DNA from: Parcubacteria group bacterium LiPW_41
GTDB taxonomy: Bacteria; Patescibacteriota; Minisyncoccia; UBA6257; GWB1-50-10
Length of the DNA stretch: 64,000 nt
Reading direction: 5' to 3'
Assembly (NCBI GenBank): GCA_007375535.1
Contig: VMEM01000001.1
Coordinates: forward strand, 39,462-103,461
The position numbers and the translations under genes were made by a program. The notes beneath the pieces are model-generated. The model was not told where the DNA came from, did no database searches, and saw only the letters and a program-made list of their open reading frames with translations. The first letter of the stretch is position 1; every line of letters starts with the position of its first letter. Below, in pieces: positions 15,572 to 56,051 of this stretch.

Positions 15572-15755
15572 TGTGGGCGATAAGGAATCGAACGTCGTCT
15601 CATCAGAATGAGACTCCCACGAACCCAGCGGTTCGTGCGCTCCGCCACTGGGAAACTCCCGTTTCCCCGACCCCTTTCCCAGTTCGAGTCCTGTATATCA
15701 CAAGATATAAAAACAACGCATTTGCTTTAGAAATAGTGCATTGTTTTTATCTATG
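15572..15755 (-). repeat. tRNA-Val(GAC) trailer element (subfamily A)
   Basis: 15-nt anti-T-arm 15682-15696; degenerate tRNA 3' copy 15573-15593. Confidence 0.9.
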
Positions 15756-15829
15756 TGGGCGATACAGGACTCGAACCTGTGACCTTTACAATGTCAATGT
15801 AACGCTCTAACCAGCTGAGCTAATCGCCC
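15756..15829 (-). tRNA. tRNA-Val(GAC)
   Basis: TTACA-TT-GAC-AT-TGTAA. Confidence 0.95.
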
Positions 15830-15834
15830 TTATA

Positions 15835-16125
15835 TTATTTTTCCTTCTTTTCTTTTTTCAATTCTTTCACCGCTTCAGTAAGTGAAACATCAGGATGTTT
15901 TGCAACCGCCTCAAGCATATCTGCAAGCTTCACATATCCGTCATTGAGTGGAAGCTCTTTAGCCTTCATAAACCAATGCTTCTTTTTTCCTCCATCGGCT
16001 TTTTCCAGCTCCAACGCAATCATATCTGGCGTCTCATCATTCTTTAATTTCCTCCCGAGATCTGCCTCTGTTTTTTCAAAGCGTTTATATACTTCTTTTT
16101 TATCCTCCTTCTTCAATTTGTCCAT
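15835..16125 (-). CDS. Hypothetical protein
   Basis: Charged ORF with coding-like composition; start uncertain. Confidence 0.55.
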   Translation of the reverse strand: MDKLKKEDKKEVYKRFEKTEADLGRKLKNDETPDMIALELEKADGGKKKHWFMKAKELPLNDGYVKLADMLEAVAKHPDVSLTEAVKELKKEKKEK

Positions 16126-16224
16126 GCCAAAGCTGAAGTGATCAAACATAATCACATAATACCTGAGACATAAAAAAATACAAATCTTTACTCTAATCTA
16201 AGATTAATCTATAAATAGACAGAA

Positions 16225-16296
16225 GCCCTTGTAGTTCAACGGATAGAACAGTGCCGTCCTAAGGCGAAGATGGGAGTTCGATTCTCTCCAAGGGCA
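16225..16296 (+). tRNA. tRNA-Arg(CCT)
   Basis: Cloverleaf; anticodon loop GT-CCT-AA. Confidence 0.9.
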
Positions 16297-16300
16297 CATA

Positions 16301-16387
16301 GGAGGGGTGGCTGAGTGGTCGAAGGCACACGACTCGAAATCGTGCAGGGGTGAAAGCCCCTCGAGAGTTCAAATCTCTCCCCCTCCG
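16301..16387 (+). tRNA. tRNA-Ser(CGA)
   Basis: CACGA-CT-CGA-AA-TCGTG; long variable arm. Confidence 0.95.
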
Positions 16388-16584
16388 CTAATATCAAAAC
16401 AATACACTTCATGTGTATTGTTTTATATTCGGAGAGATTTAAACGGGAAAGGGGTCGGGAAAACGGAAGTTTTCCCGTGGTGGAAGTACTGAAACCGCAA
16501 GGTGTCAGAAAATTTCGTCTGCGAAATTTTGTTCAATTCCCTCCCCCTCCACAAACAAAAAACACCATACAAAGTGGTGTTTTT
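16388..16584 (+). repeat. tRNA-Ser(CGA) trailer element (subfamily A)
   Basis: Anti-T-arm 16431-16444 (13/14); tRNA 3' copy 16531-16550 (18/20); second hairpin 16558-16584. Confidence 0.9.
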
Positions 16585-17257
16585 AATTTTTTTCATTTTT
16601 CACAATATTTCCATCAAACAGTGTTATTACTCGATCAGTATACTGCACATATTCTGGTTCGTGGGTAACCATAATTATTGTTTGCCCATCTGCGTGCAAT
16701 TCTTTAAATGTTTTCAAAATAGAAATAGACGTGTCATTATCAAGATTTGCTGTTGGTTCGTCAGCAAATAATATTTTCGGATTGTGTCCCATTGCACGAG
16801 CAATAGAAACACGTTGTTGTTCTCCTCCGGAAAGCTGATTGGGAAGATTATTAAACTTTTCTTTTAGTTCAACGCGCTCTAACACTCTTGCTGATATTTT
16901 TCTTGCGTCAATTTTATTTATTCCTTGTTCCAAAAGTGGAATCATTACATTTTCAATCGCATTCAATTCTGGAATAAGTGCATAATCTTGAAACACATAT
17001 CCAAGTTGAAATAGTCGTAATATGGTCCGCTCCCTATCAGTTAATATGTCTGTGTTCTTCCCTCCAATCTCAATGGTTCCTGACGTTGGTCGATCAAGAA
17101 GACTCAACTGATACATAAGAGTACTTTTTCCAGAACCCGAACGCCCAATGATTGAAATAAATTCTCCGTCGTCAACATCAAAATCAACTCCTTTTAAAAC
17201 GGTGAGCTCTGAGTTTCCACTTTTGAATTTTTTTATGATTTTTCTTGCTTGTATCAT
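16583..17257 (-). CDS. ABC transporter ATP-binding protein (LolD/MacB-like)
   Basis: GRSGSGKST, LSGGEQQR, ADEPTANLD. Confidence 0.93.
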   Translation of the reverse strand: MIQARKIIKKFKSGNSELTVLKGVDFDVDDGEFISIIGRSGSGKSTLMYQLSLLDRPTSGTIEIGGKNTDILTDRERTILRLFQLGYVFQDYALIPELNAIENVMIPLLEQGINKIDARKISARVLERVELKEKFNNLPNQLSGGEQQRVSIARAMGHNPKILFADEPTANLDNDTSISILKTFKELHADGQTIIMVTHEPEYVQYTDRVITLFDGNIVKNEKN

Positions 17258-17259
17258 AG

Positions 17260-18540
17260 TTATCGATTTAATATCGCATCAAGTGTGTTTTGTCTGGTTA
17301 TAATTTTTACTGGAATATATCCCGCAACAAGTGTTGCTAAAAACAACACTGCGATTCTTATAATTGTCCCACTCGCAGTAGCTACCAATATCCCATCACT
17401 AAACGGGAAGTTTATTGGGTTCGCATCAAAATACGGTTTTAAAAACCCAAACACTAATACCAATCCTATGAGAGTTCCTGCAATCGCATAAAAAAATGCT
17501 TGAAAGATATACGCCCATTCGATAGTAGCTGGACGAATTCCTATTCCTTTCAATATCCCAATAAACTTCCTTCTTGTAACCGCATTAATAAAAATGACGA
17601 TAAAAATTGTTATTGCAGCAACAACCAACCCAATAGAGCTAATCGCAGTGCCAAGCATAGAAAATGTATTTCTTAAGTCTTGAATAAATTTTGGTTCTGC
17701 TTCGTTTCCTGCTTTTATTACTGCATATTCATCAAAATTATTTGCAAGAAGTGCTTGCTTTATAACAGACGGAGAAAATCCCTGTTTCGCCTTTATAGAA
17801 ATCTCACCCAAGTTATAATCATCTCTGCCTGCAAGTCCACGAAATTGTGAATCGACAAAAAATATACGTCGATCAATTTCATCCACTTTACTCTTCGTAA
17901 TCCCCTTAACCCAAACTTCGCGCACATTTCCATTTATTGTTATACGAATTTTGTCTCCAATATTCACATCAGCAAGCGCAGGAAATGTTGTAGAATCAAA
18001 ATCTAAATATTTTTTTAGAAGCATTCCACCAACAATTACCTGATCATAATCACTTCGATTTAAGTATTCGCCTTCAATAATTAGTTTCGACAATTCAGTA
18101 ACCTTATCCTCATCAACTGGATCTATTCCAGCAAACAGAGTACTTACCTCATTTCCCTTGTCGTTTGCATTCTTTTTTGCCTTTTTATAATCAGCTTCAA
18201 CGGTTCCCGAACCTAAATATCGCCCAGAAACTGCTTCAACACCAGGAATATTTCGAATGGTGTTCATTATAATTGCGCTTCGTTCAATGTTATTTTTTTC
18301 TTTAAGTGGGGTTATAAAAACATCACCAATATAATGCTTATACACTGCTTGTGTTGCGCCCTCAATAAGCCCAACAAGAATACCACTCACCACCACAAGA
18401 TTGAGAAAAGTAAGCACCATAACACACACCACAAGAACATTCGTCCAAATACTTGCACGTTTTATCTGTCGTACCGCTAGAAAAAATCCAACTCGAGCAG
18501 CAGAACCAAGACTCTCTTTGTGTCGTTTTTTCCGAAACAT
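17260..18540 (-). CDS. ABC transporter permease (FtsX/MacB-like)
   Basis: TM + large extracellular domain + IGILKGIG + three TM helices. Confidence 0.88.
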   Translation of the reverse strand: MFRKKRHKESLGSAARVGFFLAVRQIKRASIWTNVLVVCVMVLTFLNLVVVSGILVGLIEGATQAVYKHYIGDVFITPLKEKNNIERSAIIMNTIRNIPGVEAVSGRYLGSGTVEADYKKAKKNANDKGNEVSTLFAGIDPVDEDKVTELSKLIIEGEYLNRSDYDQVIVGGMLLKKYLDFDSTTFPALADVNIGDKIRITINGNVREVWVKGITKSKVDEIDRRIFFVDSQFRGLAGRDDYNLGEISIKAKQGFSPSVIKQALLANNFDEYAVIKAGNEAEPKFIQDLRNTFSMLGTAISSIGLVVAAITIFIVIFINAVTRRKFIGILKGIGIRPATIEWAYIFQAFFYAIAGTLIGLVLVFGFLKPYFDANPINFPFSDGILVATASGTIIRIAVLFLATLVAGYIPVKIITRQNTLDAILNR

Positions 18541-18580
18541 ATCTTGTTCCAGTATATCTGAGAGAACGAATTTTGAAAAA

Positions 18581-19258
18581 CTATATTTCGTCTGGACAGT
18601 CAGAAAACACCCCATCAACTCCCAAACTCTTCATTTTTTGAGCATCCTCTTTTGTATCAACAGTATATACATATACCTTTAGACCTATCCTATGTGCTCG
18701 ATCAATGAACCTTTTTTTTGCGTGTTTTATATTTGGATTAATAGAATGTGCATTTATTTTTTTTGCAAAATGGATAGAACCAAATATATTTGCATAAATA
18801 AGATAACCAACGGGAGTTTTTGTATCAATTCTTCTGAATGCACGAAGCTCTCTCCTTGAAAACGAGGAAACAACAAAATCACTATGCCTCCATCCCATTC
18901 CATAATACATTTGAAGCATTGTGGCGACAGCCCATCCAGTTCCTCTACCCTTCAATTCAATATTAAGTCGTGTTTCGCGATTGATAAGTTCAATAACATC
19001 TTGAAGTTTTGGAATGTGTTCTCCCATTCCGTCATCCAATTTCCTTAGTTCATCAAATGTCTTGTTGTGTATCTTCCCTTTTCCATTTGTCGTTCTGTCT
19101 ACTGTGTTGTCGTGCATCACCACTAATTCGCCAGTCTTACATAAATGAGCATCACACTCAATCATTGAAACATTCATCCGAAGCGCTCGGCGGAACGATC
19201 TCAATGTGTTTTCTGGTTCTTTTTTTGAAGCACCTCTATGAGCAATCTTTAAAAACAT
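18581..19258 (-). CDS. Glycerophosphodiester phosphodiesterase
   Basis: IAHRGAS..PENTL; IECD; HD.TVDRTT. Confidence 0.93.
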   Translation of the reverse strand: MFLKIAHRGASKKEPENTLRSFRRALRMNVSMIECDAHLCKTGELVVMHDNTVDRTTNGKGKIHNKTFDELRKLDDGMGEHIPKLQDVIELINRETRLNIELKGRGTGWAVATMLQMYYGMGWRHSDFVVSSFSRRELRAFRRIDTKTPVGYLIYANIFGSIHFAKKINAHSINPNIKHAKKRFIDRAHRIGLKVYVYTVDTKEDAQKMKSLGVDGVFSDCPDEI

Positions 19259-19339
19259 ATCTTTTCTCTATTTATTATACATTCATATCCAAACCATCGG
19301 AATGAATTTAGTTTCTATGTCTGATACAATGAATAAAAG

Positions 19340-20386
19340 ATGTGGAATGAACATAATACCATCACTCGGACAATAAAGAAGGTTATGCCTTCAGTGGTTT
19401 CGATTACTTTAAAAAAACCAAAAGATTTGGTGATCGAACAGTTAAAAGAAGAACAAAAAGCGATTCACGAAAAATCACACATTGAAATTCCTGAAGATAA
19501 AATAGATGCACAGGGATTAGTAGATGTTGGAGGAGGAAGTGGTTTTATTATTGACGGATCGGGAATAATTCTCACGAATCGACACGTCATAGAAGAAAAA
19601 GAAGTATTGTATTTTGTCACCACACACGACAACCATACCTATGAAGCAGAACTTCTTGCAAAAGATCCAGTAGATGATATTGCAATCCTTCGAATCCAAC
19701 CAACGAGAAAATTACGCGCAGTAAAACTTGGAGATTCAGCAAAAGTGGAACTTGGGCAAACAGCAATTGCATTTGGAAATGCACTCGGTCTCTTTAAGGA
19801 CACTGTATCAATGGGGATTATCTCTGGTCTTTCTCGTGCAGTTTCTGCGCGAGAAAATGAAAATTCAGCAGTCCAAGAAATGCGCGGACTCATACAAACC
19901 GATGCCGCAATAAATCCAGGAAATTCTGGAGGACCACTTGTAAATATATATGGGAGAGTTGTGGGAATTAACGCCGCAGTAGTTGCAAGCGCAGAGAGTA
20001 TAAGTTTTGCAATTCCTATTAATACCGCAAAAAGAGATATAAAAGATTTGAAAAAATACGGAAAAATAAGACGTCCTCTTTTTGGTGTTCGTTATCTCGT
20101 TTTAAATCAAACACTAAAAGAAAAACTAAAAACGCCAGTGGACTACGGAGCATTAATAACAAAAGAACACACAATCGACGTAGCGGTCGCATCAGGAAGT
20201 CCAGCAGACAAAGCGGGAATAAAAGAAAATGATATACTTCTTCGTTGGAATGGAATCCCTATAACCGAAACGAGAAGTATTCAAGACTTTCTCGAATCCC
20301 ACGGAGTTGGAGATGAGGTAACGCTTGCAGTCCTTCGAAATGGAATAGAAATCGAGCGACGAGTAACTCTCGAAGAAAGAAAATAA
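19340..20386 (+). CDS. HtrA/DegP-family serine protease with a PDZ domain
   Basis: GSGFI, TNRHV, TDAAINPGNSGGPL; C-terminal PDZ. Confidence 0.93.
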   Translation: MWNEHNTITRTIKKVMPSVVSITLKKPKDLVIEQLKEEQKAIHEKSHIEIPEDKIDAQGLVDVGGGSGFIIDGSGIILTNRHVIEEKEVLYFVTTHDNHTYEAELLAKDPVDDIAILRIQPTRKLRAVKLGDSAKVELGQTAIAFGNALGLFKDTVSMGIISGLSRAVSARENENSAVQEMRGLIQTDAAINPGNSGGPLVNIYGRVVGINAAVVASAESISFAIPINTAKRDIKDLKKYGKIRRPLFGVRYLVLNQTLKEKLKTPVDYGALITKEHTIDVAVASGSPADKAGIKENDILLRWNGIPITETRSIQDFLESHGVGDEVTLAVLRNGIEIERRVTLEERK

Positions 20387-20423
20387 AAAATACCCCACAC
20401 TTGTTGGGGTGTTTTTTATTTTC

Positions 20424-21341
20424 TTAATATATATATTCATCCACAACCAAACCTTGTTTATCATAAAGGATCAAGCGGTCATGTTTTGGATCAAATTGCA
20501 TTCCTCCATTTAACCATGTTCTCCATTCTTTTGAGAAAAAATCAGGCTTCTCTCTATTGGTGTCATAACAATTTCCAAATGTATACTGATCAGCAATTCT
20601 ACGACACTCAACATCATTAGGCCCAGTATATCTATTTAAATCATTCGCGGAAGGAAGTTTACACGAAGGAAGTGATCGAAGAAAATCCTGACACGCACCG
20701 GTGAAGGTAATTATTCTTTTATCCTGTGCAATTGATGGACACTCTTCAGGAAGCGAAGGAGAAAAAGAAATCTGTTGATTCAAAAAACCCATACACTTAT
20801 TTAATCTAAAGTTTTTTCCGTTTGCACTCTTCCAAGAATACATTCGAATATATTCTCCAGGTTTAAGAATAATATCGCTTTCCCTGTTCACACCATATGG
20901 ACTAAAATCAGAAATTGCTCGAGGAATTTCAACAGATCCTCCAAGATTTGCTCGAATAATCCATTCAGTAACTAACACTGGAGATTTTAAATTGTCTGTC
21001 GAAATTGTAATTTCGGAATTAGTATCTCCAAAATAATCCGGTGGATTTACCCCAGAAATGCGGACTTGTTTATAAAATGGAGAAAGTTGTGATTCAACAA
21101 ATCCAAGCGGTGGCTCAACTTTTGGTTTTTGTGGCTCCTCTGGTTTTTCTGGTTGATTATTATTTCCTCCAGTTGGACCTACTGAAACGGGTTTCTGCCC
21201 AACATCAGTTCCAGTCATATCGAGATATCCAGGTTGAAAAAACGAAGCAATCGTTCCTGGCTTTGATTTTCCAGAAAAAATTTGAGACGCACCAAAAAGA
21301 ATGAGACCAAGAACAAAGAGAATAATTAAAATATTCTTCAT
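20424..21341 (-). CDS. Secreted/anchored Cys-containing hypothetical protein
   Basis: Signal-like N-terminus; several Cys; L.D..G.VVD..Y C-terminus. Confidence 0.65.
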   Translation of the reverse strand: MKNILIILFVLGLILFGASQIFSGKSKPGTIASFFQPGYLDMTGTDVGQKPVSVGPTGGNNNQPEKPEEPQKPKVEPPLGFVESQLSPFYKQVRISGVNPPDYFGDTNSEITISTDNLKSPVLVTEWIIRANLGGSVEIPRAISDFSPYGVNRESDIILKPGEYIRMYSWKSANGKNFRLNKCMGFLNQQISFSPSLPEECPSIAQDKRIITFTGACQDFLRSLPSCKLPSANDLNRYTGPNDVECRRIADQYTFGNCYDTNREKPDFFSKEWRTWLNGGMQFDPKHDRLILYDKQGLVVDEYIY

Positions 21342-21345
21342 ATAG

Positions 21346-23784
21346 TTATATTACAAGATTTATAAGCCGGTTGGGAACAAAGATAATTTTTTTGATTTCA
21401 ATGCCGTTTATCATCTTTTTTATTCCGTCTTGGCTCATTGCAATCTTTTTTGCATCATTTTCAGAAATTCCACGTGGAACCTCAATGGTCGCGCGCACTT
21501 TCCCATTTATTTGAACAACTAACACAAAGTTTTCTTCAACTATTTTCTTTGGATCATACACTGGCCATTCAGAAATATGAATTGATTTTTTATTTCCAAG
21601 CCCAAACCATAACTCCTCCGTCATATGCGGAGCAAATGGAGCGAGTAACTGTAGAAACATTTGAAATTCAGCTACGGAAACCTCTTTATTTTCTATTTCA
21701 TTTAAACAAATCATTAGTGCGCTGATCGCGGTGTTATATTGAAGTGATTCAATGTCTTCGGTCACCTTTTTTATTGCTTTATGTATTGCGCGCTCACACG
21801 TTGGCTTTTTATTCTTATGCTCTATTACTGTTTGTCCCAATCTCCACACACGCTCAATAAATCGTGCAACCCCAACAATTCCCGCATCGCGAAAATCTCC
21901 ACCTTGCTCAAACGGAGCCAAAAACATCAAATTAGTTCGAAGCGTGTCCGCGCCAAATCGTTTTATATATTCATCGGGATTTACTACGTTTCCTTTTGAC
22001 TTTGACATCTTTGCGCCTTCTTTAATAAGAAGACCATGTGCACGAAATCGAGTAAACGGCTCTTCAAAATCAATAAGCCCAGCATCCTTAAACACCATTG
22101 TGATAAATCGTGAATATAACAAATGAAGAACAGAATGTTCTGCCCCACCAATGTACATATGCACTGGAAGCCATTTCTTTGTTATTTCATTATTCCAAGC
22201 ACTTTTCCTGTCTTGCACACTTGGATACCTTAAGAAATACCATGCAGAATCAAGAAATGTATCTGATACATCGGTTTCTCTTCGTGCCCCTCCACCGCAC
22301 ACAGGACACCCCACTTTATAAAACGATTTCACTGATGCAAGTGGCGATTCATCTTTTCCTTTTGGTCGAAACTCCTTCACCATCGGAAGTAGCACAGGAA
22401 GATTTTTTTCTTTTTCTGCATACCACCCAGGCATTTCCTTTTGTTCTCCCTTCCCCACACGTGCACACGCCTCGCAATACATCATTGGAATTGGAGGGCT
22501 CCAATATCGTTGACGAGAAACAATCCAATCTCTTAAACGAAACTGCGTAGTAAACGTTCCTCCAACATAATTAGTGATTTTCTTTTTTGCGTCCTCAACA
22601 CTCAATCCATTTAAAGGACCTGAATTTATTAACTCACCATCTCCAATATATGCTTCAGTAAGTGGTTCAACTGTTTTCCCATCTGAAATAACAACTACAA
22701 TTGGAAGTTTAAATTTCTTTGCAAAATCAAAATCGCGTTCATCATGAGCCGGAACAGCCATAATTGCTCCTGTTCCATACCCAGAAAGAACATAATCAGC
22801 AGCAAAAATAGGAATTTCTTTTTTATTTGCAGGATTGATTGCTTTAATTCCCTTCAATTCAATTCCTGTCTTCTCTTTGTTTTCAACGCGCTCTTCCTCG
22901 CTTTTCTCTTTAGAAATTTTTACATATTTCTCCACTTCGCTATAATTTGAGATTTGAGATTTAAGTTTTGAAATTATTTCGTGTTCCGGAGCTACCACCA
23001 TATATGTCGCTCCAAATAATGTGTCCGGTCGAGTAGTAAACACCTTCAATACATGCTCTGAATTTGCAATTTTAAAATTAATTTCTGCTCCTTCAGATTT
23101 TCCAATCCAATTTCGCTGTGCAATTTTTACACGCTCTGACCAATCAATATGATCAAGATTTTTTAATAATCGATCTGCATAGCGCGTAATACGAAATGAC
23201 CACTGTTCTAACTCCTTTTTAATTACCACGCTTGAGCACCGTTCACATGCACCACCAACCACCTGTTCATCAGCAAGCACTGTTTTGCATGACGGGCACC
23301 AATTTACTGCCTGTTTCTTCCTGTATGCAAGTCCACGCTTCCACATTGCGATAAATACCCACTGTGTCCAACGATAATATTCTGGATCATATGTTTCCAA
23401 ATGTTCATTCCATGCAAATCCATTTCCAATCATCTCCAACTGCTTATAGAACCGTTTTTCAGAAACTTTCGATTGTTTTAATGGATGTGTTCCCACTTTA
23501 ATTGCATAGTTTTCAGAATGGATTCCGAAACCATCGAGTCCAATCGGTTCAAATACATCATACCCACCCATCCGCTTAAACCTCCCATATATATCACTCC
23601 CAACAAACGCATACATGTTTCCAACATGAAGCCCCTCTGCTGATGGATACGGAAACATCATAAGGTTATAAAATGGCTTCCTTTTTGCGGTTTTTGTTGA
23701 TTTTAGTGACGGTTCATAAATCCCCGTCTTTTTCCATTCGGTCTGCCATCGCTTCTCAATTTTTGAAAACTCGTATTTCTTCAT
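21346..23784 (-). CDS. leuS: Leucine--tRNA ligase
   Basis: MFPYPS..GLHVGN, FTTRPDTLFG, SRQRYW, KMSKS. Confidence 0.97.
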   Translation of the reverse strand: MKKYEFSKIEKRWQTEWKKTGIYEPSLKSTKTAKRKPFYNLMMFPYPSAEGLHVGNMYAFVGSDIYGRFKRMGGYDVFEPIGLDGFGIHSENYAIKVGTHPLKQSKVSEKRFYKQLEMIGNGFAWNEHLETYDPEYYRWTQWVFIAMWKRGLAYRKKQAVNWCPSCKTVLADEQVVGGACERCSSVVIKKELEQWSFRITRYADRLLKNLDHIDWSERVKIAQRNWIGKSEGAEINFKIANSEHVLKVFTTRPDTLFGATYMVVAPEHEIISKLKSQISNYSEVEKYVKISKEKSEEERVENKEKTGIELKGIKAINPANKKEIPIFAADYVLSGYGTGAIMAVPAHDERDFDFAKKFKLPIVVVISDGKTVEPLTEAYIGDGELINSGPLNGLSVEDAKKKITNYVGGTFTTQFRLRDWIVSRQRYWSPPIPMMYCEACARVGKGEQKEMPGWYAEKEKNLPVLLPMVKEFRPKGKDESPLASVKSFYKVGCPVCGGGARRETDVSDTFLDSAWYFLRYPSVQDRKSAWNNEITKKWLPVHMYIGGAEHSVLHLLYSRFITMVFKDAGLIDFEEPFTRFRAHGLLIKEGAKMSKSKGNVVNPDEYIKRFGADTLRTNLMFLAPFEQGGDFRDAGIVGVARFIERVWRLGQTVIEHKNKKPTCERAIHKAIKKVTEDIESLQYNTAISALMICLNEIENKEVSVAEFQMFLQLLAPFAPHMTEELWFGLGNKKSIHISEWPVYDPKKIVEENFVLVVQINGKVRATIEVPRGISENDAKKIAMSQDGIKKMINGIEIKKIIFVPNRLINLVI

Positions 23785-23862
23785 AAACAATTAATTCAAT
23801 TGTAATGCCAAATCAAAGAAAATAAAAACCCCGCCTTATCGGGCGGGGTAGTTTGGAAATAA

Positions 23863-24537: not shown

Positions 24538-24639
24538 TAAAACCTCCTTTTTTTATTGTTTATGTGCTTGACTCTACCCTACTGTGTATTTGAGAATTGT
24601 GCAACTATTGATGAATTTTACTTATTATGTATAATCAGC

Positions 24640-47038: not shown

Positions 47039-47082
47039 ATTTCAAAGCCCGCCAAACATTGGCGGGATTTTTTATTCAAAAA

Positions 47083-47098
47083 TGTTTCACGTGAAACA
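47083..47098. promoter_or_regulatory. parS: parS site (centre of a 34-bp perfect palindrome, 47074-47107)
   Basis: TGTTTCACGTGAAACA, an exact ParB-binding consensus. Confidence 0.92.
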
Positions 47099-47240
47099 TT
47101 TTTGAATGTTTGTTGATAAACATTTTTTTAACGATGTAGGCCTAGCTTGACTATCAGATTGTCAAAAAATGAAGCAGGTTTTCCTGGTTTTTCGGGTTTT
47201 TCCATTTTTTTAATAAAACCAACTAAACACACCCTGAAAA

Positions 47241-47256
47241 TGTTTCACGTGAAACA
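47241..47256. promoter_or_regulatory. parS: parS site
   Basis: TGTTTCACGTGAAACA. Confidence 0.92.
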
Positions 47257-47386
47257 ATATTGTGCGACATATCAAAATTATGTAGGCCTGGCTTGACTAT
47301 CAGCTTTTGAAACGATGGAATATAAATGTTTATTTATATTTCCAAAATGAGAAAGCTAACAAGTAAGGCGCCATCAGCTTTTGAGT

Positions 47387-48061
47387 TTATTCAACCTCCT
47401 TAATTTCTATCTTATCATGACCAATAGAAATATATGTCGAAGGAATATCAGTCCAACAACCAGAATTATAATAGTGAATTCCTCTTAACTGCTTTTCCAT
47501 CGCCTTGTGAGTATGTCCACAAAATACAATATCGGCCCTCTTTAAAAGTCCATATAAGACAGCTCCACGCGCAACCTTTTCTGACACCCGAAGCCATGAC
47601 TTACTTGCTCGCTTTAAGAAGCGACTGATAAATTGTCGTTCGGTGTCCAGCTTCTGTATTCCAAGATATAACCAAGAGGCGATAGTACTAACAATTGGAT
47701 TTTGTGTCATAAACCTATCAAATTGATGACCGTGAATAACAAGACATCTCTTCTTGTTCCACTCAAATATATATTCGTTACGAACCGTGACTCCAATTAA
47801 ACGCGAAAGAATCTGTGCAGCACCATCGTGGTTTCCCGCAATCCAAATAACTTCAACCCCATACTTTGGGTCAGACAACTGTCTTACTTTTGACAGCAAC
47901 TCCCAGTGATCGTGCTGAAGTCGTGTAAAATCAAGATCATCAAAAATATCACCATTTAATATCAGGGTTTTATATTCTTCGGTATTAAGCAGTTCAAGAA
48001 GCTTGTTTGCTCGACTCACGCTTGAACCAAGATGTATATCAGAAACAATAAGTGTGTGCAT
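47387..48061 (-). CDS. Metallophosphoesterase (LpxH-like family)
   Basis: SDIHLG, NGDIFD, GNHD, HGH, GHTH, NSGCW. Confidence 0.88.
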   Translation of the reverse strand: MHTLIVSDIHLGSSVSRANKLLELLNTEEYKTLILNGDIFDDLDFTRLQHDHWELLSKVRQLSDPKYGVEVIWIAGNHDGAAQILSRLIGVTVRNEYIFEWNKKRCLVIHGHQFDRFMTQNPIVSTIASWLYLGIQKLDTERQFISRFLKRASKSWLRVSEKVARGAVLYGLLKRADIVFCGHTHKAMEKQLRGIHYYNSGCWTDIPSTYISIGHDKIEIKEVE

Positions 48062-48108
48062 AGTTTGGGAATTGCGTAAATCCCGCAGTTCATCTTTAAT
48101 ATAACAAG

Positions 48109-50268
48109 ATGGCACAAAAGAAACAAAAAAAGAAAAGTAAATCAGAAGTCACAAAATCAGTCTCCCAATCAAAGAAGCAAAAAGAAATTTCGCGTGGACC
48201 AAAAATAGATCTACATCCTGATGTCCGACGATATGTTCTTGTTATTGTTTTTTTTGGTGTTGCACTTATTTTACTTTTAGCATCAGCAAATCAAGCTGGC
48301 CCAGTCGGAGAATTTATTTATCAAATATTTTTTAAATTATTCGGATGGGGATACTTTCTTCTCCCATTTGTTTCAATCATTCTTGGTGTTGCATTTCTTT
48401 CTCCTGATGACAAACAGTTTTTCGGATTACCACTTATTGGAGGAATTGGATTTGTTCTTTCGTGTTTGGGATTTATGGATTTGGTTGCAAGTCAGAGCGG
48501 GGGATGGGTTGGAAATTTTATTGGAATGCTTGAGCAACCATTTGGAATTGTTGCAGCAATAATTATTACGCTTTTAGGAATTGTTATTTCGTTTCTTGTC
48601 ACACTCAATCGACCACTTCACACATTTTCATGGTTTAACAAAAATGAAGATGATGATGAGATCGATGAAACCCCTATTATCGCACCGCTTGAAATAAAAA
48701 CACCAATTGGTGCTCCAATTGAAGAACCAATAAAAGATGAGATTAAAAAACCTGAGCGAGCAGAAAAACGAAAACAAGAAGAGGACGCAATTCGTGAAGC
48801 CGAAGGTATTGGATTTGAGGTTCCAAAAGCATCTGCACAAAAAGTAATAAAAAATTATACACCACCACCACTTGATCTTCTTTCTTCGAACGTTGAAAAA
48901 CCAACAATAGGGGATTTGCGCGCAAATGCAAATATTATAAAGCGAACACTCGAAAGTTTTGGTATTCCAGTTGAGATGGGAGAAATCAATGTTGGGCCAA
49001 CTGTTACGCGATACACACTAAAACCAGCAGAGGGCGTAAAGATTGCAAAAATCACTACACTCAACCAAGATCTTGCACTTGCGCTCGCCGCACATCCAAT
49101 TCGTATTGAAGCTCCAATTCCTGGAATGTCACTAGTGGGAATTGAAGTCCCAAATAAATCCGCGGCAATTGTTCGATTGGGAAGTTTGTTGTTATATCCA
49201 GACTTTCAAAAATCAGATGGACTATCTTTTGCATTAGGAAGAAATGTAAATGGAGATCCAATGTTTCCAAGTATTGCAAAAATGCCACACATGCTTGTTG
49301 CTGGTGCAACTGGATCTGGAAAATCAATTGCAATTCATTCGATACTTATTTCGTTGCTTTATAGAAATTCTCCTGACATGTTGAAGTTGATTCTCATCGA
49401 TCCAAAACGTGTTGAGCTTTCTATATATAACAACCTTCCACATCTTATTGCTCCCGTAGTCACCGAAAACAAAAAAGCGATCGGCGCATTGCGCTGGGTA
49501 ATTCAAGAAATGGATCGAAGATATCAAACACTTCTCGAAGCAGGATCACGCGATATAAAAAGTTATAACAAGAGCGCTGCCGAACCAATGTATTACATTC
49601 TTGTTGTAATTGATGAACTTGCCGATCTTATGCAAACATATGGACGAGAAGTTGAAGGGTCAATCATTCGTCTCGCACAGATGGCGCGTGCAACCGGAAT
49701 TCATATGGTTGTATCAACTCAGCGTCCTTCTGTTGAAGTTATCACCGGACTTATTAAAGCAAACATCACAACACGCGTTGCACTTCAAGTTGCAAGTCAG
49801 ATTGATTCACGCACAATACTTGATACTGCGGGCGCAGAAAAACTTTTAGGTCGTGGAGATCTCTTATATCAATCTTCTGATTCTCAAAAACCAAAACGCT
49901 TACAAGGTGCATTTATTAGTGAGGAAGAAATTAAAAAGGTTATTCGTTTCATTATTGAAAATAACGATGTATCAGTAACTGGCGCATCAATTGAAAACGC
50001 AGCAGAGCCAGAAGCAACTCATATATTTGAAAGCTTTGGATCAAATGACGAAAGTGGAGATGAACTTCTTGAAGAGGCAATTGAGGTGGTTCGATCCGCA
50101 GGAAAAGCCTCTGCATCACTTCTACAAAGACGTCTAAAGGTTGGGTATGCCCGTGCCGCTCGACTACTCGACATTATGGAGGAACGAGGAATTATCGGAC
50201 CAGGAGATGGAGCAAAACCAAGAGAGATACTCATTGATACAGACCAACCTCCAACCGAATCATTTTAA
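48109..50268 (+). CDS. ftsK: DNA translocase FtsK/SpoIIIE
   Basis: 4-TM N-terminus; HMLVAGATGSGKS; IDELADLM; gamma domain SLLQRRLKVGYARAARL. Confidence 0.96.
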   Translation: MAQKKQKKKSKSEVTKSVSQSKKQKEISRGPKIDLHPDVRRYVLVIVFFGVALILLLASANQAGPVGEFIYQIFFKLFGWGYFLLPFVSIILGVAFLSPDDKQFFGLPLIGGIGFVLSCLGFMDLVASQSGGWVGNFIGMLEQPFGIVAAIIITLLGIVISFLVTLNRPLHTFSWFNKNEDDDEIDETPIIAPLEIKTPIGAPIEEPIKDEIKKPERAEKRKQEEDAIREAEGIGFEVPKASAQKVIKNYTPPPLDLLSSNVEKPTIGDLRANANIIKRTLESFGIPVEMGEINVGPTVTRYTLKPAEGVKIAKITTLNQDLALALAAHPIRIEAPIPGMSLVGIEVPNKSAAIVRLGSLLLYPDFQKSDGLSFALGRNVNGDPMFPSIAKMPHMLVAGATGSGKSIAIHSILISLLYRNSPDMLKLILIDPKRVELSIYNNLPHLIAPVVTENKKAIGALRWVIQEMDRRYQTLLEAGSRDIKSYNKSAAEPMYYILVVIDELADLMQTYGREVEGSIIRLAQMARATGIHMVVSTQRPSVEVITGLIKANITTRVALQVASQIDSRTILDTAGAEKLLGRGDLLYQSSDSQKPKRLQGAFISEEEIKKVIRFIIENNDVSVTGASIENAAEPEATHIFESFGSNDESGDELLEEAIEVVRSAGKASASLLQRRLKVGYARAARLLDIMEERGIIGPGDGAKPREILIDTDQPPTESF

Positions 50269-50369
50269 TTGTTTTAATCATGAGTCCCGCCAGTCCACGG
50301 ATTGGCGGGATTAAGCTATCCAAAAAGACAAATGAGTGATATAAAGAGAGAGCAAAATATATAAAAAAT

Positions 50370-51071
50370 ATGGAAGAAATTACTACAAAATCCATATCGG
50401 CACTTCTCACTGATGCAATGCGGATAAAAAATATGTCAGTGGAAAAACTTTCGCAAGTAACAGGAATCTCAGACAGATTTCTCGGACTACTTTTAGAAGA
50501 ACGTTTTAACAAACTTCCATCAACACCATATGTACGTGGCTATGTGCTAAAGATTGGAGAGGTTCTTTCTATTGATGGAAATGAGCTCTGGGAAATAATA
50601 AAATCACACCACACACAAACCGTTGCAAAATCAGGAGAAAAAGACATACTTCCAAAAAACAGATTTAAGGTTGAAGCATTAAATATAAAAATAATTATTG
50701 GGGGAGTCATTGGAATTATCTTTTTCATATTTTTATTATTCAGAATCCCTGCACTACTTGGAAAACCAAAATTCGAACTCTATGACATTCAAGATGGAAT
50801 GAAGGTGACAACGTCAACGCTGTCAATTCGTGGTACAATAAATCCGTCGGATGAATTATTTATCAACGACGAACAAATCGTCGCCAATGAAAAAGGAGAT
50901 TTTGAAAAAACAATTGAATTAACTCCAGACTTCAACACACTTCATTTCACGGTAAAAGGACTTCTCGGAAAAGAACTACAAGAAACAAAACAAATTTTCT
51001 ACGAGGCTCCAAAAGTTGAAGCAAAGAAAAAAGTAAATGAATCATCAACCGAACCAATAAATATCGAATAA
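50370..51071 (+). CDS. RodZ-like HTH membrane protein
   Basis: HTH with LP..PYVRGY; one TM helix; Ig-like C-terminus. Confidence 0.7.
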
Positions 51072-51075
51072 AATT

Positions 51076-52107
51076 ATGCCAGCAAAAAAACAAAAAGAAG
51101 AGGGAACAAAAGATTTAGAGTCGTTAATGGAGGCTCTCCAATCACGTTTTGGAGAAGGATCTATAATGACACTCGGCGAAGCAGGAGGATTAAAAAAAGT
51201 TGAAGCAATTTCTACGGGATCATTTTCACTTGATCTTGCACTTGGAGTTGGTGGCTTTCCAAAAGGAAGAGTAATCGAAATATTTGGTCCAGAAAGTTCT
51301 GGAAAGACAACACTTGCGCTTCACGTAGTTGCAGAGGCACAAAAGGCAGGAGGAAAAACTGCATATATCGACGCAGAACACGCACTCGATCCAGTATATG
51401 CATCAAAGATTGGAGTAAAAATAAAAGAACTTCTCATATCACAACCAGATAATGGAGAAGAAGCACTAAATATTTTGGAGAGTTTGGTGCGCTCAAACAT
51501 TATTGATGTGGTTGTTGTCGATTCGGTTGCGGCACTCACCCCACGAGCAGAGATTGAAGGAGAGATGGGGGATTCGCACATGGGACTTCAAGCACGTTTA
51601 ATGTCTCAAGCGCTCCGCAAACTTACCGCAATTGCAGCGAAATCAAACACAATTGTTATATTCATAAATCAAACTCGAATGAAGATTGGGTTGGTATTTG
51701 GAAACCCAGAGACAACCCCTGGAGGAATGGCATTAAAATTCTACGCATCGGTTCGTATTGATATTCGAAGAATTGCACAGGTGAAGAAAGGGGATGCGGT
51801 TGTAGGAAATCGAACAAAAGCAAAGGTAGTAAAAAATAAAGTTGCACCACCATTTCGAGTTGCAGAATTCGATATTATGTATGGCGAGGGAATTTCATAC
51901 GAAGCAGACGTTCTAACGACAGCAGTAAAATATGATGTCGTAAAAAAGAATGGTGCAAGTTATAGTTTTGAAAATGAAAAACTTGGAGTGGGATTTGATA
52001 ATATCCGAGAGAAACTAAAGGCTGACAAAAAATTACTTAAAGCAATCGAAAAAAGAACAACAGAAGTTGCAGAAAAAAAAGGAGTAGTAGTAGAAACAGA
52101 AGAATAA
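51076..52107 (+). CDS. recA: Recombinase RecA
   Basis: [37 protein letters not shown]. Confidence 0.99.
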
Positions 52108-52168
52108 ATAAAAAAGTCCCCGCTATTCGCGGGGGTTTTGCTAAAATAATGATTAATCTTTTTATTTC

Positions 52169-52495
52169 CTATAATTTGTATTTTGGTTTGTGTTGAATAA
52201 AAATTCCAAAAATAAACTCGAAAGAATCTCGTGTAAATTGTTGTTTTTCTATCTTCCAACTAACAACCTCAAGTTTTGGATTGCATTCCTCAAAATTTTT
52301 TATAATCCAGAGAATCGTCAAAGCTTTATTACCTGGATTATCTTTCAAACCCAATTTGATATAGGTATTATTTCCAACCGTCGTCGCGTTAGCAACACGC
52401 TGTTTCACAAAATCACTTTGTGCTTTTGAATCTTTTGGAAAAATTACCAAAAAGAAAGTAACCAACAACACGATAAACAAACCAATCTTTTTCAC
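52169..52495 (-). CDS. Secreted hypothetical protein (orphan cassette)
   Basis: AAGGAG SD; signal peptide. Confidence 0.6.
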   Translation of the reverse strand: MKKIGLFIVLLVTFFLVIFPKDSKAQSDFVKQRVANATTVGNNTYIKLGLKDNPGNKALTILWIIKNFEECNPKLEVVSWKIEKQQFTRDSFEFIFGIFIQHKPKYKL

Positions 52496-52540
52496 TTCTA
52501 CTCCTTATTTAGTTAATTAAAGAATAAATAATTTATAGAA

Positions 52541-53359
52541 CTAAATGACATTTTCGTCAACATTATTACATTTATAAAAGTTTTCAAATAATTTTGCCAC
52601 AAGTATTGGTCCGGTTCCCCCTGGGGTCGGCGTATAGAAAAAATTATCCGTTGTTGGTTTGAGTAGATCTCCACATAATTTCCCGTCGATAAACGAACAT
52701 CCAAAATCAATAACGAGCACACCGTTTTTTATCATTCCCTCATTCACAATATTTGGAACACCAGTTCCGAGTATAACTACGTCAGCATCTTTTATCTTTG
52801 ATAAATCATCTCCTTTGTCGAGAATTACCAATTGTTTTCCTTGCAATCGTAAATAATCAGAAATTGGCTTTCCCACTAAAAAACCGTTTCCCACAACCAC
52901 AAATGTTTCATGTGAAACATTTCCAAGAACCTGGTAGTGCGATAAAACCTCACAAAACGTGGATACTGACGGCGGAAGAATCCTCTGATCAGTTAAGAAC
53001 TGCCCATATGCAGACTCCGACAATACATCTAGATCCTTCTCTTTTGGCATAGAGTTTACTATTCGCCTTCTATCCAAATGAGAGGGAAGTGGAAGCTGAA
53101 CAATCAAGCCACCACACGTTTTTCCATGTCCAATTATTCCAATTTTTTTTCTTAATTCATCAACTTCTATCGATTCAGCAAATTGATAGGCTCGAAAATC
53201 AATATTAAGAACTTCTGCTATTTTCCTTTTCTGCTCCACAAATTTCTTTGATGCAGCATTCTCTCCAACAATAATAACCCCAAGGAATCTCTTTGGTGTT
53301 GGATGCTTTACTAATCTATCAATAATTTCTTTTGCAATTTTTCTTCCGTCTATAATCAC
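52541..53359 (-). CDS. folD: Methylenetetrahydrofolate dehydrogenase/cyclohydrolase
   Basis: IIDGRKIA; IVQLPLP; VGKP; TPTPGGTGP. Confidence 0.92.
   Translation of the reverse strand: MIIDGRKIAKEIIDRLVKHPTPKRFLGVIIVGENAASKKFVEQKRKIAEVLNIDFRAYQFAESIEVDELRKKIGIIGHGKTCGGLIVQLPLPSHLDRRRIVNSMPKEKDLDVLSESAYGQFLTDQRILPPSVSTFCEVLSHYQVLGNVSHETFVVVGNGFLVGKPISDYLRLQGKQLVILDKGDDLSKIKDADVVILGTGVPNIVNEGMIKNGVLVIDFGCSFIDGKLCGDLLKPTTDNFFYTPTPGGTGPILVAKLFENFYKCNNVDENVI
52904..52919. promoter_or_regulatory. parS: parS-like site inside folD (1 mismatch)
   Basis: TGTTTCATGTGAAACA flanked by AAA/TTT. Confidence 0.75.
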
Positions 53360-53404
53360 CCGGTTATAGTATCGTTTAATAAAAAACTCCGCAAATGCGG
53401 AGTG

Positions 53405-53776
53405 TTAAACACATAAATTAATCCCACAAATCTTTGCAGATTTTTCAATTTTTTCTCTCTCAAGCGCAACACCCAAACCGGTAATCGCGTATGCTTGTCG
53501 AATTCTACCCTCATTCAAACCAAGATTTAAATAGCGTAAGTGCTTCTCTTGAGTGTTCTTTTTATTTTCAATATAGAGAGAAAATAATCTAAAGACTTTT
53601 TTTATGTCCTGATCAAAAGTTTCACTATTTGTTTCTTTATCAAGATATTTATAGATAATTTTATCCAACTTTTTTTTGTGGTGTGCCTTCCGCGCTTCTT
53701 TAAAATCAAAAAGAACAACAAACCAACACAAAAAAACAAACACCGACGAAATGATGTTAGTTAAACTAAATCTCAT
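53405..53776 (-). CDS. Membrane-anchored hypothetical protein (orphan cassette)
   Basis: TTGCAA-17-TATAAT promoter; GAGG SD. Confidence 0.55.
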   Translation of the reverse strand: MRFSLTNIISSVFVFLCWFVVLFDFKEARKAHHKKKLDKIIYKYLDKETNSETFDQDIKKVFRLFSLYIENKKNTQEKHLRYLNLGLNEGRIRQAYAITGLGVALEREKIEKSAKICGINLCV

Positions 53777-53845
53777 ACAAACCTCATATTTATTAATATT
53801 AATGTATGAAAATATTATACCGCTATTTTATTGTGTTTGCAAGTC

Positions 53846-53944
53846 CTATACAAAAAGGAGGGGGACATACGTCATTATGAGTCCCAATATAAGAAGTGAA
53901 ACGAAAACAATAACCACTACTCTGTGCTTTTTTGCGTTAAACAT
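53846..53944 (-). CDS. Putative 32-aa single-TM peptide
   Basis: MFNAKKHRVVVIVFVSLLILGLIMTYVPLLFV*. Confidence 0.45.
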   Translation of the reverse strand: MFNAKKHRVVVIVFVSLLILGLIMTYVPLLFV

Positions 53945-53968
53945 ATTTTCTTAATTATAAAATATTTT

Positions 53969-54541
53969 TTAAAACAGTTGTGCTGGTGGGGGAGTTGGCT
54001 CTACAAAATCATTAAACTCAAGTCTTGTCATTTGCGGTTTAAATTTTTCTGGAATCCAAAGATATTTTTGATCTTTCATTTGATCATATACCATCTTTGT
54101 TACTCGAACATCTTGAGTACAATAATCTTTTAGTTTTTGCATTTCTCCATTTCGATAAAAATCGATTGCATCAAGCCCGTGCGCGCTCTTTCCTACCCCA
54201 ACATTTGCTTCTGCGAGCACTCCCAATCCGATACGTCGTCCAAGACGCTTCTCAATCTCCTCAAGAATATCAACGTGTTGAATTGCTGCAATATTAAACG
54301 AGTAATATTTTTCAAGGACCGGAATATCAAACTTCTTACTATAAAACCCAATCAACATATATGCATTTTGAAAATACTTTCCCGCCTTATCAAACTCTGT
54401 CTCATCAAAACAATAATATGCATCCTCATTATAGGAGTAGAGCCCAATGACAGACGTTTCAAGTTTCTTTATATTTTCTTGACCACCAACATCGGCAAAT
54501 GTGTTTTTTGTCTCAATATCAAATACAATTTTATCTCTCAT
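53969..54541 (-). CDS. RNase H-like (YprB/DEDD) exonuclease-domain protein
   Basis: VFDIET; FDIPVL; YCTQDV. Confidence 0.85.
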   Translation of the reverse strand: MRDKIVFDIETKNTFADVGGQENIKKLETSVIGLYSYNEDAYYCFDETEFDKAGKYFQNAYMLIGFYSKKFDIPVLEKYYSFNIAAIQHVDILEEIEKRLGRRIGLGVLAEANVGVGKSAHGLDAIDFYRNGEMQKLKDYCTQDVRVTKMVYDQMKDQKYLWIPEKFKPQMTRLEFNDFVEPTPPPAQLF

Positions 54542-54567
54542 TTTGGTTATAAGTCCCCATTATACAG

Positions 54568-55062
54568 TTAGGTATACATGTCGGCAACATGTGAGGCGGC
54601 AAAGCTTTCTGGTTTTGTTTTAACCTCATAATTCGACGCCCGAATCATTCCGACAATCTCTTGAATTAAAACGTTCGTTGGACCGTTTACTCCAACATCT
54701 GCATGAATTTCAAATGTCCATTTTGGTATTGGAAATGTATGTTCTGTTTTTTCAATCTCCTTCAAAAGTGTTTCTGCGATTTCAAGTGACAACAAAACTT
54801 CTCGGATAATTCTATCTCGTAATGTATAAAATTTTCCCAACTCAGTTCTTCTCCAAAAATATCTTCCGCCATTACCCACACGGTGCACAACGATCGCTGT
54901 CACAAAATCCGCCATTTTATTGTGAAACCCCATTGAATCAGTTCCAATAATTATCTTATATTCTTTTCTAGTGTCCTCACGCATATATCTCAAAATCTCT
55001 CGTACTACTGACGAGATATCAAATTCAACACCTATTGAACTTCGAAATAATAATGGCGACAT
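54568..55062 (-). CDS. RNase H-like YkuK (DUF458) family protein
   Basis: IIGTDS; EIHADVG; KPESFAAS.VAD. Confidence 0.85.
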   Translation of the reverse strand: MSPLLFRSSIGVEFDISSVVREILRYMREDTRKEYKIIIGTDSMGFHNKMADFVTAIVVHRVGNGGRYFWRRTELGKFYTLRDRIIREVLLSLEIAETLLKEIEKTEHTFPIPKWTFEIHADVGVNGPTNVLIQEIVGMIRASNYEVKTKPESFAASHVADMYT

Positions 55063-55108
55063 AGTTCCAACCTAACCCTGAAGGCATAATATGTCAATTT
55101 TTCATTCA

Positions 55109-55163
55109 TAAATACATATTCCACACAGACTTAGGGATTTAGTCTGCGTGGAATATGTATTTA
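55109..55163. repeat. 23-bp inverted repeat (22/23) with a 9-nt loop
   Basis: TAAATACATATTCCACACAGACT / AGTCTGCGTGGAATATGTATTTA. Confidence 0.85.
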
Positions 55164-55249
55164 CTCATTTTTACGGTAGATAGAAAAAAATCTTGAGTTT
55201 TCTTTGACTCTAGTGTACAACCAATACAGAACATAAAAATGGAGGAAAA

Positions 55250-55609
55250 GTGAATTTTTTTGATAATGACGAAAACGAGGTGATATTAAAGACGGGAGAT
55301 TTTGTTGCTTTTTATTTCAAACCTGACGAATATCTTGCGGCAGCAATTCAAACCGCAGAGAAAAAGATGTTGAATTTTTTTGAAAATTCAAAAAAACAGG
55401 AATATTTCTTTTTTAATCTACCAATTTCACTTGAAGAAGGTAAAAGGGTAATTGAAAAGAGAATCGGATTTACACTTGATTCACTCGAAGGCGAGGAGAA
55501 AAAACACAAAGAAAACAATCTTGCGCAATTTGCTTATATATTCATCCCCGCAAAGAATAAAGGAAAAAATATTATCACCACCGTATTCAAAATTGGAAAC
55601 CCCGTATAA
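55250..55609 (+). CDS. Hypothetical protein (orphan cassette)
   Basis: GGAGG SD; terminator overlapping the stop codon. Confidence 0.55.
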   Translation: MNFFDNDENEVILKTGDFVAFYFKPDEYLAAAIQTAEKKMLNFFENSKKQEYFFFNLPISLEEGKRVIEKRIGFTLDSLEGEEKKHKENNLAQFAYIFIPAKNKGKNIITTVFKIGNPV

Positions 55610-55670
55610 TTCGGGGTTTTTTCTTGAGTTTTTTTAGATATCTGATATGCTTGTTGTAGAAGTTTTGGAA

Positions 55671-55743
55671 GGGCCAGTAGCTTAGTGGCTAAAGCACCGA
55701 GCTTATACCTCGGCGACCGAAGGTTCGAGTCCTTCCTGGCCCA
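55671..55743 (+). tRNA. tRNA-Ile(TAT)
   Basis: CCGAG-CT-TAT-AC-CTCGG; GGGCC acceptor; A73. Confidence 0.9.
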
Positions 55744-55769
55744 CAGAACGGGCATTACAAACAAAATAT

Positions 55770-55841
55770 GGGCGTTTAGCTTAGTGGTAGAGCGTCTCGT
55801 TTACACCGAGAAGGTCGGGGGTTCAATCCCCTCAACGCCCA
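55770..55841 (+). tRNA. tRNA-Val(TAC)
   Basis: TCTCG-TT-TAC-AC-CGAGA. Confidence 0.95.
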
Positions 55842-56051
55842 CACAATAAAACATCATATTTCTCAATATGATGTTTTTGTATGAGGGGATTGAACAAGAA
55901 GGGGTGTTGGGGAAACGTTTGTTTCCCCATGGAGGAAGTATTGAAACCGAGTGGTTTCAAAGCGCAGTCTCGCCCGCAAGACGAGCAGTGAAATTTCCCC
56001 TCAACGCCCACACAAAAACAAAAACATCCTTTTCTAGGATGTTTTTGTTTT
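55842..56051 (+). repeat. tRNA-Val(TAC) trailer element (subfamily A)
   Basis: 14-nt exact anti-T-arm 55882-55895; 55996-56015 is identical to 55827-55846; second hairpin extends to 56051. Confidence 0.92.

Follow-up and report, generated by a model that had tools for sequence, protein, structure and literature searches.

Folded, target-matched units behind tRNA genes of a Parcubacteria group bacterium and their possible integration as guide-armed single-stranded DNA

The 64,000-nucleotide stretch of Parcubacteria group bacterium LiPW_41 DNA analysed here (contig VMEM01000001.1; hereafter the window) carries three related folded elements, one each behind the tRNA genes for Val-GAC, Ser-CGA and Val-TAC. 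Their common core, termed subfamily A, was found to be the middle of a larger unit of approximately 160 nt, in which the end of the gene is followed by a terminator-like hairpin (hairpin X), an antisense arm, the core and a second copy of the gene end. Coordinates of the parts were read by eye from the sequence, the tRNA genes being taken from tRNA calls, and no open reading frames (ORFs) lie within the units. Unit 1, on the minus strand, consists of tRNA-Val(GAC) (15755-15829), the AT-rich terminator-like hairpin X (15708-15749), a 15-nt arm complementary to the T-loop and the 3' strand of the T-stem of this tRNA (15682-15696), the core (15597-15681; defined by folding, covariation and model R1) and a direct copy of the tRNA 3' end with one substitution and one deletion (15573-15593). 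Within this core we located the G-rich strand at 15669-15680, hairpin 1 at 15650-15667, the linker at 15640-15647, hairpin 2 at 15618-15637 and hairpin 3 at 15597-15614. Unit 2, on the plus strand, follows tRNA-Ser(CGA) (16301-16388) with an AT-rich hairpin X (16391-16428), an arm complementary to the T-arm at 13 of 14 positions (16431-16444), the core (16445-16530; G-rich strand 16445-16456, hairpin 1 16456-16477, linker 16478-16486, hairpin 2 16489-16508, hairpin 3 16509-16530) and a direct copy of the tRNA 3' end (16531-16552), after which comes a second hairpin (16558-16584). Unit 3, also on the plus strand, follows tRNA-Val(TAC) (55770-55842) and comprises an AT-rich hairpin X (55843-55880), a perfect 14-nt complement of the T-arm (55882-55895), the core (55896-55987; hairpin 1 55908-55929, linker 55930-55938, hairpin 2 55941-55960 and an imperfect hairpin 3 55967-55982) and the right end of the unit with the direct copy of the tRNA 3' end (55988-56011), followed by a hairpin at approximately 56014-56051.

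Units with other core types stand in the window behind Arg-GCG (6080-6250) and Glu-TTC (9100-9285) on the minus strand and behind Leu-TAA (10123-10290) and Ser-TGA (11151-11360) on the plus strand, and in the Arg-GCG unit the hairpin, arm and a truncated core are repeated. One core type has a conserved hairpin inserted inside its antisense arm, and many units carry insertions of short perfect palindromes, about 20 nt long, in their stems and gene-end copies (L147, L187, L317 and others). The host genome (747 kb in six contigs) holds 48 tRNA calls and one tmRNA, and our reading of these 49 genes placed a unit, in some cases incomplete, behind 29, with at least four unrelated core types, while 20 were without a unit. 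Subfamily A is represented exactly seven times according to model R1, each time behind a tRNA or tmRNA gene. Rfam returned only tRNAs at gathering score over the window and, up to an E-value of 5, just weak overlaps below the cut-off; the three cores had no gathering-score match to a known ribozyme or structured RNA family.

The unpaired G-rich strand, hairpin 1, the purine linker and hairpin 2 that the original prediction had described on the tRNA strand were read directly in all three cores, as was a 15-nt G-rich stretch identical between the Val-GAC and Ser-CGA copies. Against dinucleotide shuffles, DNA folding of the Val-GAC, Ser-CGA and Val-TAC units gave z values of -4.2, -4.8 and -2.6 and RNA folding, in the same order, -2.1, -4.0 and -2.6, and the opposite strands folded about equally well (DNA -3.8, -4.1, -2.6; RNA -2.9, -3.4, -3.9). 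Folding energy therefore selects neither strand nor molecule. Covariation was calculated over 49 sequences, six from this genome and 43 taken from 124 GTDB matches because their hairpin-2 loop had 4 nt and a large insert was absent. Paired cells amounted to 96.9% compared with 88.2% after shuffling, and changes on both sides were seen in 10 of 17 pairs and 80 cells compared with 5 and 20 in shuffled alignments, a result reached in none of 500 shuffles. As related sequences can beat shuffles (a warning given by the tool), slid controls matter as well, and these scored far lower, at most 0.10 in comparison to 0.27 for the true register. RNAalifold recovered hairpins 1 and 2 unprompted.

The compensatory changes expected from three copies were borne out for hairpin 2, whose four outer pairs showed 18, 14, 26 and 9 both-side changes, and reduced to one covarying pair (8 both-side changes) in hairpin 1, which is nearly invariant and which the search pattern had fixed in 43 of the 49 sequences. 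For hairpin 3 the expectation did not hold, as this stem is swapped wholesale as a module across the family and is imperfect rather than compensated in Val-TAC, and the 4-nt loop thought to be common to hairpin 3 already differs in the orthologous copy of a congener (G002). In hairpin 1, loop positions 1 and 4 pair in 215 of 235 sequences, leaving two-base loops, and hairpin 2 frequently has a three-base loop. Mismatches over both stems were G-T in 35 and A-C in 25 cases (p 0.25), with 24 and 8 in hairpin 1 alone, which favours the written strand, so that mismatch counts do not decide between RNA and DNA. A G-quadruplex reading was not favoured, as conservation does not extend to the first GG of the linker. 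Stems were kept in homologues rather than broken at random and the units were polymorphic; together with the circularly permuted core described below, the 49-sequence covariation supports the earlier proposal that selection acts on the structure and on the unpaired G-rich motifs of a single-stranded nucleic acid. An assembly artefact was rejected, as the Val-GAC and Val-TAC regions (14780-15784 and 55788-56600) matched contigs of sequencing run X1, which may be the source sample, without difference.

A strict 28-letter pattern identified at least 122 loci in GTDB, from an estimated total of about 750 stretches, and a second pattern yielded 120 metagenome stretches. The core-bearing relatives were labelled mostly as Patescibacteria (among the 80 listed, three were Bdellovibrionales and several were given just as "bacterium"), and a neighbouring protein, through its ESM Atlas clusters, also points to Patescibacteria. 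When 150 other genomes of the phylum were scanned, model R1 matched 18, with one to eight copies each and a clumped distribution, and 15 of these 18 were retained after inspection (G058, G087 and G104 were dropped). The core had no match in the phage and plasmid collections IMG/VR, PLSDB and INPHARED, and the proposal that the cores are not decayed prophage scars is thereby upheld; a prophage or plasmid remnant was rejected on the same ground. Ten matches from one scan of such collections were without the unit build, and matches to the Escherichia coli proK unit resembled chromosome pieces, not carriers.

tRNA genes are frequent targets: 64 of the 124 GTDB matches listed follow a tRNA, of 31 types, as do 60 of 115 distinct cores in a further set, and 136 of 288 distinct A cores have a tRNA just upstream. 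Arms pair on average over 8.9 nt with the T-arm of their own tRNA and over 4.7 nt with other tRNAs. The arm ends 3 nt ahead of the core in 63 of 95 cases with at least six pairs, and the right copy turns identical at tRNA positions 57-61 in 77 of 91. Of 28 cases scored, 24 were readable, and in 23 of these position 57 of the T-loop covaried with the arm and the right end of the unit. The right end often fails to match the arm at a tandem G-A pair that faces positions 55-56 of the T-loop, indicating that the arm must pair well with the host T-loop and less well with its own unit end. The duplications of the target end span 16-90 nt.

Comparison with relatives showed that the units differ locus by locus between congeners. 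Two congeners were compared, G001 and G002; at Val-GAC the site is empty in G001 and holds an orthologous unit in G002, at Ser-CGA both carry unrelated islands, and at Val-TAC both have other core types. A contig from another study (run X3), approximately 98% identical, lacks the Ser-CGA unit (16394-16556 missing). Two reference-based alignments showed one core at different targets: the Ala-TGC core of this genome is identical to the Leu-GAG core of G001 and two changes from the Ser-CGA core, these near-identical cores carrying wholly different arms, and the Val-TAC core is about 90% identical to the Asp-GTC core of G002, whose arm is re-matched to Asp. At Arg-GCG, this genome and G001 have a common hairpin and arm with a different core, and the Arg-TCT core of G001 is a circular permutation in which the tip of hairpin 1 carries the target stem (z -4.7). 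We regard the hairpin and G-rich structure as real, selected and mobile.

Several further observations concern these sites. In G002, an ORF which we take to be GIY-YIG-like separates a truncated 5' part of tRNA-Ser(CGA) from a complete copy of this gene (L146:1813-2115), and the element that follows presumably encodes, by motif, a large serine recombinase. In G001 a 5.3-kb island behind tRNA-Ser(CGA) (L145:1946-7200) encodes what we read as a restriction enzyme-like protein, a LexA-methyltransferase fusion and a nucleotidyltransferase pair, probably for defence. Elsewhere in the present genome (contig C6, 38651-38900), two odd tRNA-like genes (Lys-TTT and Ser-CGA calls) precede a further structured stretch, and tRNAs of undetermined anticodon similar to this pair occur in both congeners.

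Many cores without a tRNA adjoin conserved protein-gene ends in the order functional gene end, arm, core, displaced gene end. By translated motifs we assume the 3'-end targets to be rpsI, rpmG, rplL, uvrB and secA and the 5'-end targets translational GTPases (fusA, typA and lepA types), dinB, murD and a glycosyltransferase. Of 33 motif-defined cases 30 passed the score, and over 245 common codons their two gene-end copies showed 121 synonymous and 12 non-synonymous differences, a ratio inflated by the choice of segments by amino-acid identity; by codon position the changes numbered 22/8/125. This, the most informative of the results, indicates a foreign replacement fragment, both ends having been functional in different lineages, and hence integration. 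In-situ duplication with neutral decay, which may act in retargeting, was rejected as sole origin by the synonymous bias. Several segments extend untrimmed from the junction to the stop or start codon, and identity windows at junctions fall to about 8 nt (L106, L330), which would not suffice for RecA to cross over in the ordinary way. Cores placed antisense to the gene, at its 5' end, account for 17 of the 33 cases; core orientation follows which gene end must be replaced, not transcription. Cores can also bracket or accompany cargo, as at tRNA-Asn, where restriction-modification and toxin-antitoxin-like genes form a 6.9-kb block with a copy on either side (L349), and in one case a 14.7-kb serine-recombinase element lies between tRNA-Gly and core (L350). 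The latter, in tRNA-Gly(TCC) of genome G172 (L350:1130-15965), was read as carrying a serine recombinase, two VirD4-like ATPases, a diversity-generating retroelement (DGR) and a replication-relaxation-like gene. In eight loci (L022, L039, L233, L250, L279, L329, L339 and L346), at unrelated intergenic sites, core A takes a fixed-ended form in which terminal hairpins are present and the right end is constant; this form presumably resembles a non-autonomous IS200/IS605 derivative. At L351 the core sits in the loop of a palindromic repeat with the empty repeat form alongside, and 18 model hits were counted in genome G174.

The build of the unit, the match of the arm to its target, presence and absence among relatives, the recurrence of one core at different targets with re-matched arms and the synonymous gene-end differences are all observed. 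We favour, at roughly even odds, the reading that the units are guide-armed mini-elements which integrate as folded single-stranded DNA. A unit would leave as a small single-stranded circle of gene end, hairpin, arm and core, the antisense arm would likely pair with the target, and strands would be exchanged within a few bases of the core by an enzyme supplied by the host or borrowed. While the unit is circular, its arm would match the right end of the unit imperfectly; pairing with a fresh target would be better, and this difference would drive strand exchange. The incoming gene end would replace the resident end, which would move behind the core, and the gene would survive for that reason. 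The core itself would be a protein-docking or priming signal rather than a catalyst at fixed distance, because circular permutation is tolerated, and fold-back copying at the terminator hairpin may rewrite the arm and so create new targets. Whereas the original prediction left functional RNA and single-stranded DNA side by side, the antisense cores, integration-type flank duplications and lack of a clear G-T excess lean towards a mobile DNA unit.

Several results weigh against this reading, in addition to the inflated synonymous count. No mobilising enzyme emerged among the families scored in the 15 positive genomes (subfamily A model only, 34 candidates per genome, genomes partly kin): a Y1 transposase occurred in 6 of 15 core-positive genomes compared with 63 of 150 overall, a large serine recombinase in 10 of 15 compared with 94 of 150 and a LAGLIDADG-like neighbour in 4 of 15 compared with 31 of 150. 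The present genome has no serine recombinase and one XerC/D-like recombinase only. Replication-strand bias was absent (12 versus 17 with a unit, 9 versus 11 without), and circle junctions were absent from the sequencing-run contigs examined (contigs only). The empty Ser-CGA allele of run X3 may be a deletion rather than a precise excision, as the tail of the left copy is kept. A sense core stands at one 5'-end target (L323), the count having fixed motif orientation so that exceptions are uncountable, and cores also occur in loops of other repeats without target duplication. At Val-TAC no joint was found in the contigs of four runs.

Candidate enzyme genes near the units and elsewhere in the genome were also recorded. 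The sole tyrosine recombinase scores 128 bits against an integron integrase cut-off of 265, the one Y1 transposase has its own, different palindromes, and at L002:1285-2020 a Y1/RAYT-like transposase gene has one palindrome of about 30 nt that occurs both within it and just after it. The only reverse transcriptase (RT) belongs to a DGR (L229; contig C6, 101287-104895) composed of a 350-aa RT, an Avd-like gene and a 117-nt template/variable repeat pair. In the window, a 228-aa helix-turn-helix and LAGLIDADG-like ORF (14844-15530, minus) is flanked by the Val-GAC unit and tRNA-Ala(GGC) and extends at its end into this tRNA; it had no Pfam or NCBIfam match, its Atlas clusters being named LAGLIDADG-like, and it has three copies in this genome and is absent at this site from G001, G002 and the run X3 contig. 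A 167-aa HNH endonuclease ORF (9572-10075, plus) overlaps tRNA-Leu(TAA) with its end.

Measured against known systems, the unit combines the working of an attC cassette or CTX attP with that of an integrative mobilizable element (IME), yet belongs to none of these. Integron attC cassettes and the CTX-phi attP are gene-less folded strands whose two arms rebuild a double-stranded recombination site, and the units are similar in having an arm complementary to their own left end, a mismatch bubble near the junction and the ability to flank gene blocks. Unlike them, the units have a multi-branched core, no dif target and no crossover triplet shared across tRNA and protein targets; the R-box triplet is present in tRNA T-loops and absent at protein-gene junctions, and this genome lacks an integron integrase. 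Like the IMEs and cis-mobilizable elements (CIMEs) described in PMC5704250, the units use tRNA, rpsI, rpmG and rplL ends, accrete at one site and place the gene end in the direct repeat so that the gene is unbroken. They differ in being about 160 nt long without an integrase, in carrying one core to dozens of unrelated targets and in matching the arm to each target; no cognate integrase was present in the units and no related autonomous element with the same att sites was found. With IS200/IS605 and REP/REPIN-RAYT elements (PMC6006769, PMC3733652) they have in common a single-strand substrate, hairpin recognition and a guide-paired cleavage site, and some A cores are, as in IS200/IS605 derivatives, flanked by fixed terminal hairpins at varied sites. 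The guide of the units is 9-20 nt and target-derived, not a fixed tetranucleotide, and the target end is duplicated, save in a minority form; association with Y1 and lagging-strand bias were not seen.

A close structural parallel lies in E. coli, where our reading of strain K-12 found the unit build in the tyrV/rttR, lysQ, lysT/W/Y/Z and proK repeats and not at serT. The tyrT, lys and proK repeats have the tRNA 3' end, a spacer or terminator, an antisense T-arm copy, a GC-rich folded core and a direct copy. The subfamily A unit and the RtT (rttR) repeats are alike in having an antisense and a sense copy of the 3' end of the host tRNA at their borders, and proK repeats hairpin, arm and truncated core as does Arg-GCG here. 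The cores of the tyrT, lysQ and proK repeats are unrelated in sequence to subfamily A: model R1 finds nothing at tyrT and Rfam RtT is unmatched in the window. The rttR unit is present at 1-14 copies in 4741 of 5426 E. coli genomes. In the portions of the literature available, rttR is a small RNA (sRNA) of unknown action, not a target-matched mobile unit, and protein-gene targets are not mentioned. The preprint bioRxiv 2024.07.17.603846 likewise calls its mode of action unknown and reports raised coverage at tyrT/rttR under stress, which it interprets as an RNA/DNA hybrid; the library method of that study was blind to single-stranded DNA circles. The literature searched, which did not extend to subscription papers and old scans, gave no account of this unit family; the present analysis established the protein-gene targets and their synonymous replacement, the permuted core, the re-matching of arms and the negative results for enzymes.

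An alternative that we regard as unlikely is that the core acts as an RNA cut from the trailer of a pre-tRNA or mRNA as in RtT, the arm regulating tRNA folding, processing or termination and the duplications being by-products. It draws on the large share of copies that lie on the transcribed strand behind tRNA genes, on the G-T mismatches and many GNRA-like loops of hairpin 1, on an arm that can sequester the T-arm in a long stem (as in the Val-TAC unit) and on the annotation of one tyrT unit as the sRNA rttR, described as an RNA product in PMC3318445. Against it stand the 17 intact cores antisense to protein genes, the 20 tRNA genes without a unit and the locus-by-locus differences between congeners, a terminator-like hairpin ahead of the core and the predominance of two-base and three-base loops in hairpins 1 and 2, and the synonymous replacement fragments would be left unexplained.

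A similarly low probability is given to units that perpetuate without a dedicated enzyme through replication errors and host recombination, whereby fold-back template switching would write the arm and perfect the stems, slippage would create tandems, gene conversion would swap cores and natural transformation would spread units via conserved flanking genes. The flat co-occurrence of Y1, serine recombinase and LAGLIDADG-like neighbour suits this scenario, as do young copies that duplicate hairpin, arm and truncated core exactly (Arg-GCG, L160, L180 and E. coli proK). Quasi-palindrome correction can, moreover, mimic compensatory change. PMC10592627 describes RRS elements in which folded G-rich DNA can stall forks and load RecA, which also counts in its favour; the E. 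coli RRS/TRIP1 sequence itself was without the unit build. A spacing fixed at 3 nt, a junction window that is also fixed and unpaired bases that stay invariant from family to family, in many of them, need a reader, and the very short junction identity in protein genes is likewise contrary to this scenario.

Small ribozymes typically show circular permutation and unpaired purines that do not vary, and both were observed here along with longer-than-unit tandems that resemble circle copying, although a retro-type element in which the core is a ribozyme or RNA scaffold, the arm an internal guide, and the RNA circularises or reverse-splices before an RT fixes it into DNA appears quite improbable given the lack of an Rfam ribozyme match, an only RT that belongs to a DGR, the antisense 5'-end targets and a permutation that shifts the junction relative to the core.

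In summary, if the units are guide-armed elements integrating as folded single-stranded DNA, most tRNA genes of a 0.75-Mb symbiont genome would be occupied by an unannotated mobile family, which would also swap the ends of core genes between species and could bracket defence-type cargo. Were the RNA explanation true instead, the units would constitute a large new family of tRNA-trailer RNAs. More tentatively, and with doubt, the integration reading may be extended to a new class of self-targeting DNA parasites spanning Patescibacteria and enterobacteria, composed of a folded scaffold of about 100 nt and a rewritable 10-20-nt guide, in which a single host enzyme would insert single-stranded DNA with cargo wherever the guide pairs, a minimal programmable integration system that would account for the 40-year-old E. 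coli tyrT/RtT repeats. The guide-armed reading itself would already give the long-unexplained repeats behind E. coli tyrT, lysQ and proK a mechanism testable in a laboratory strain, and a gene-less, guide-matched integration substrate would be of interest to genome engineers.

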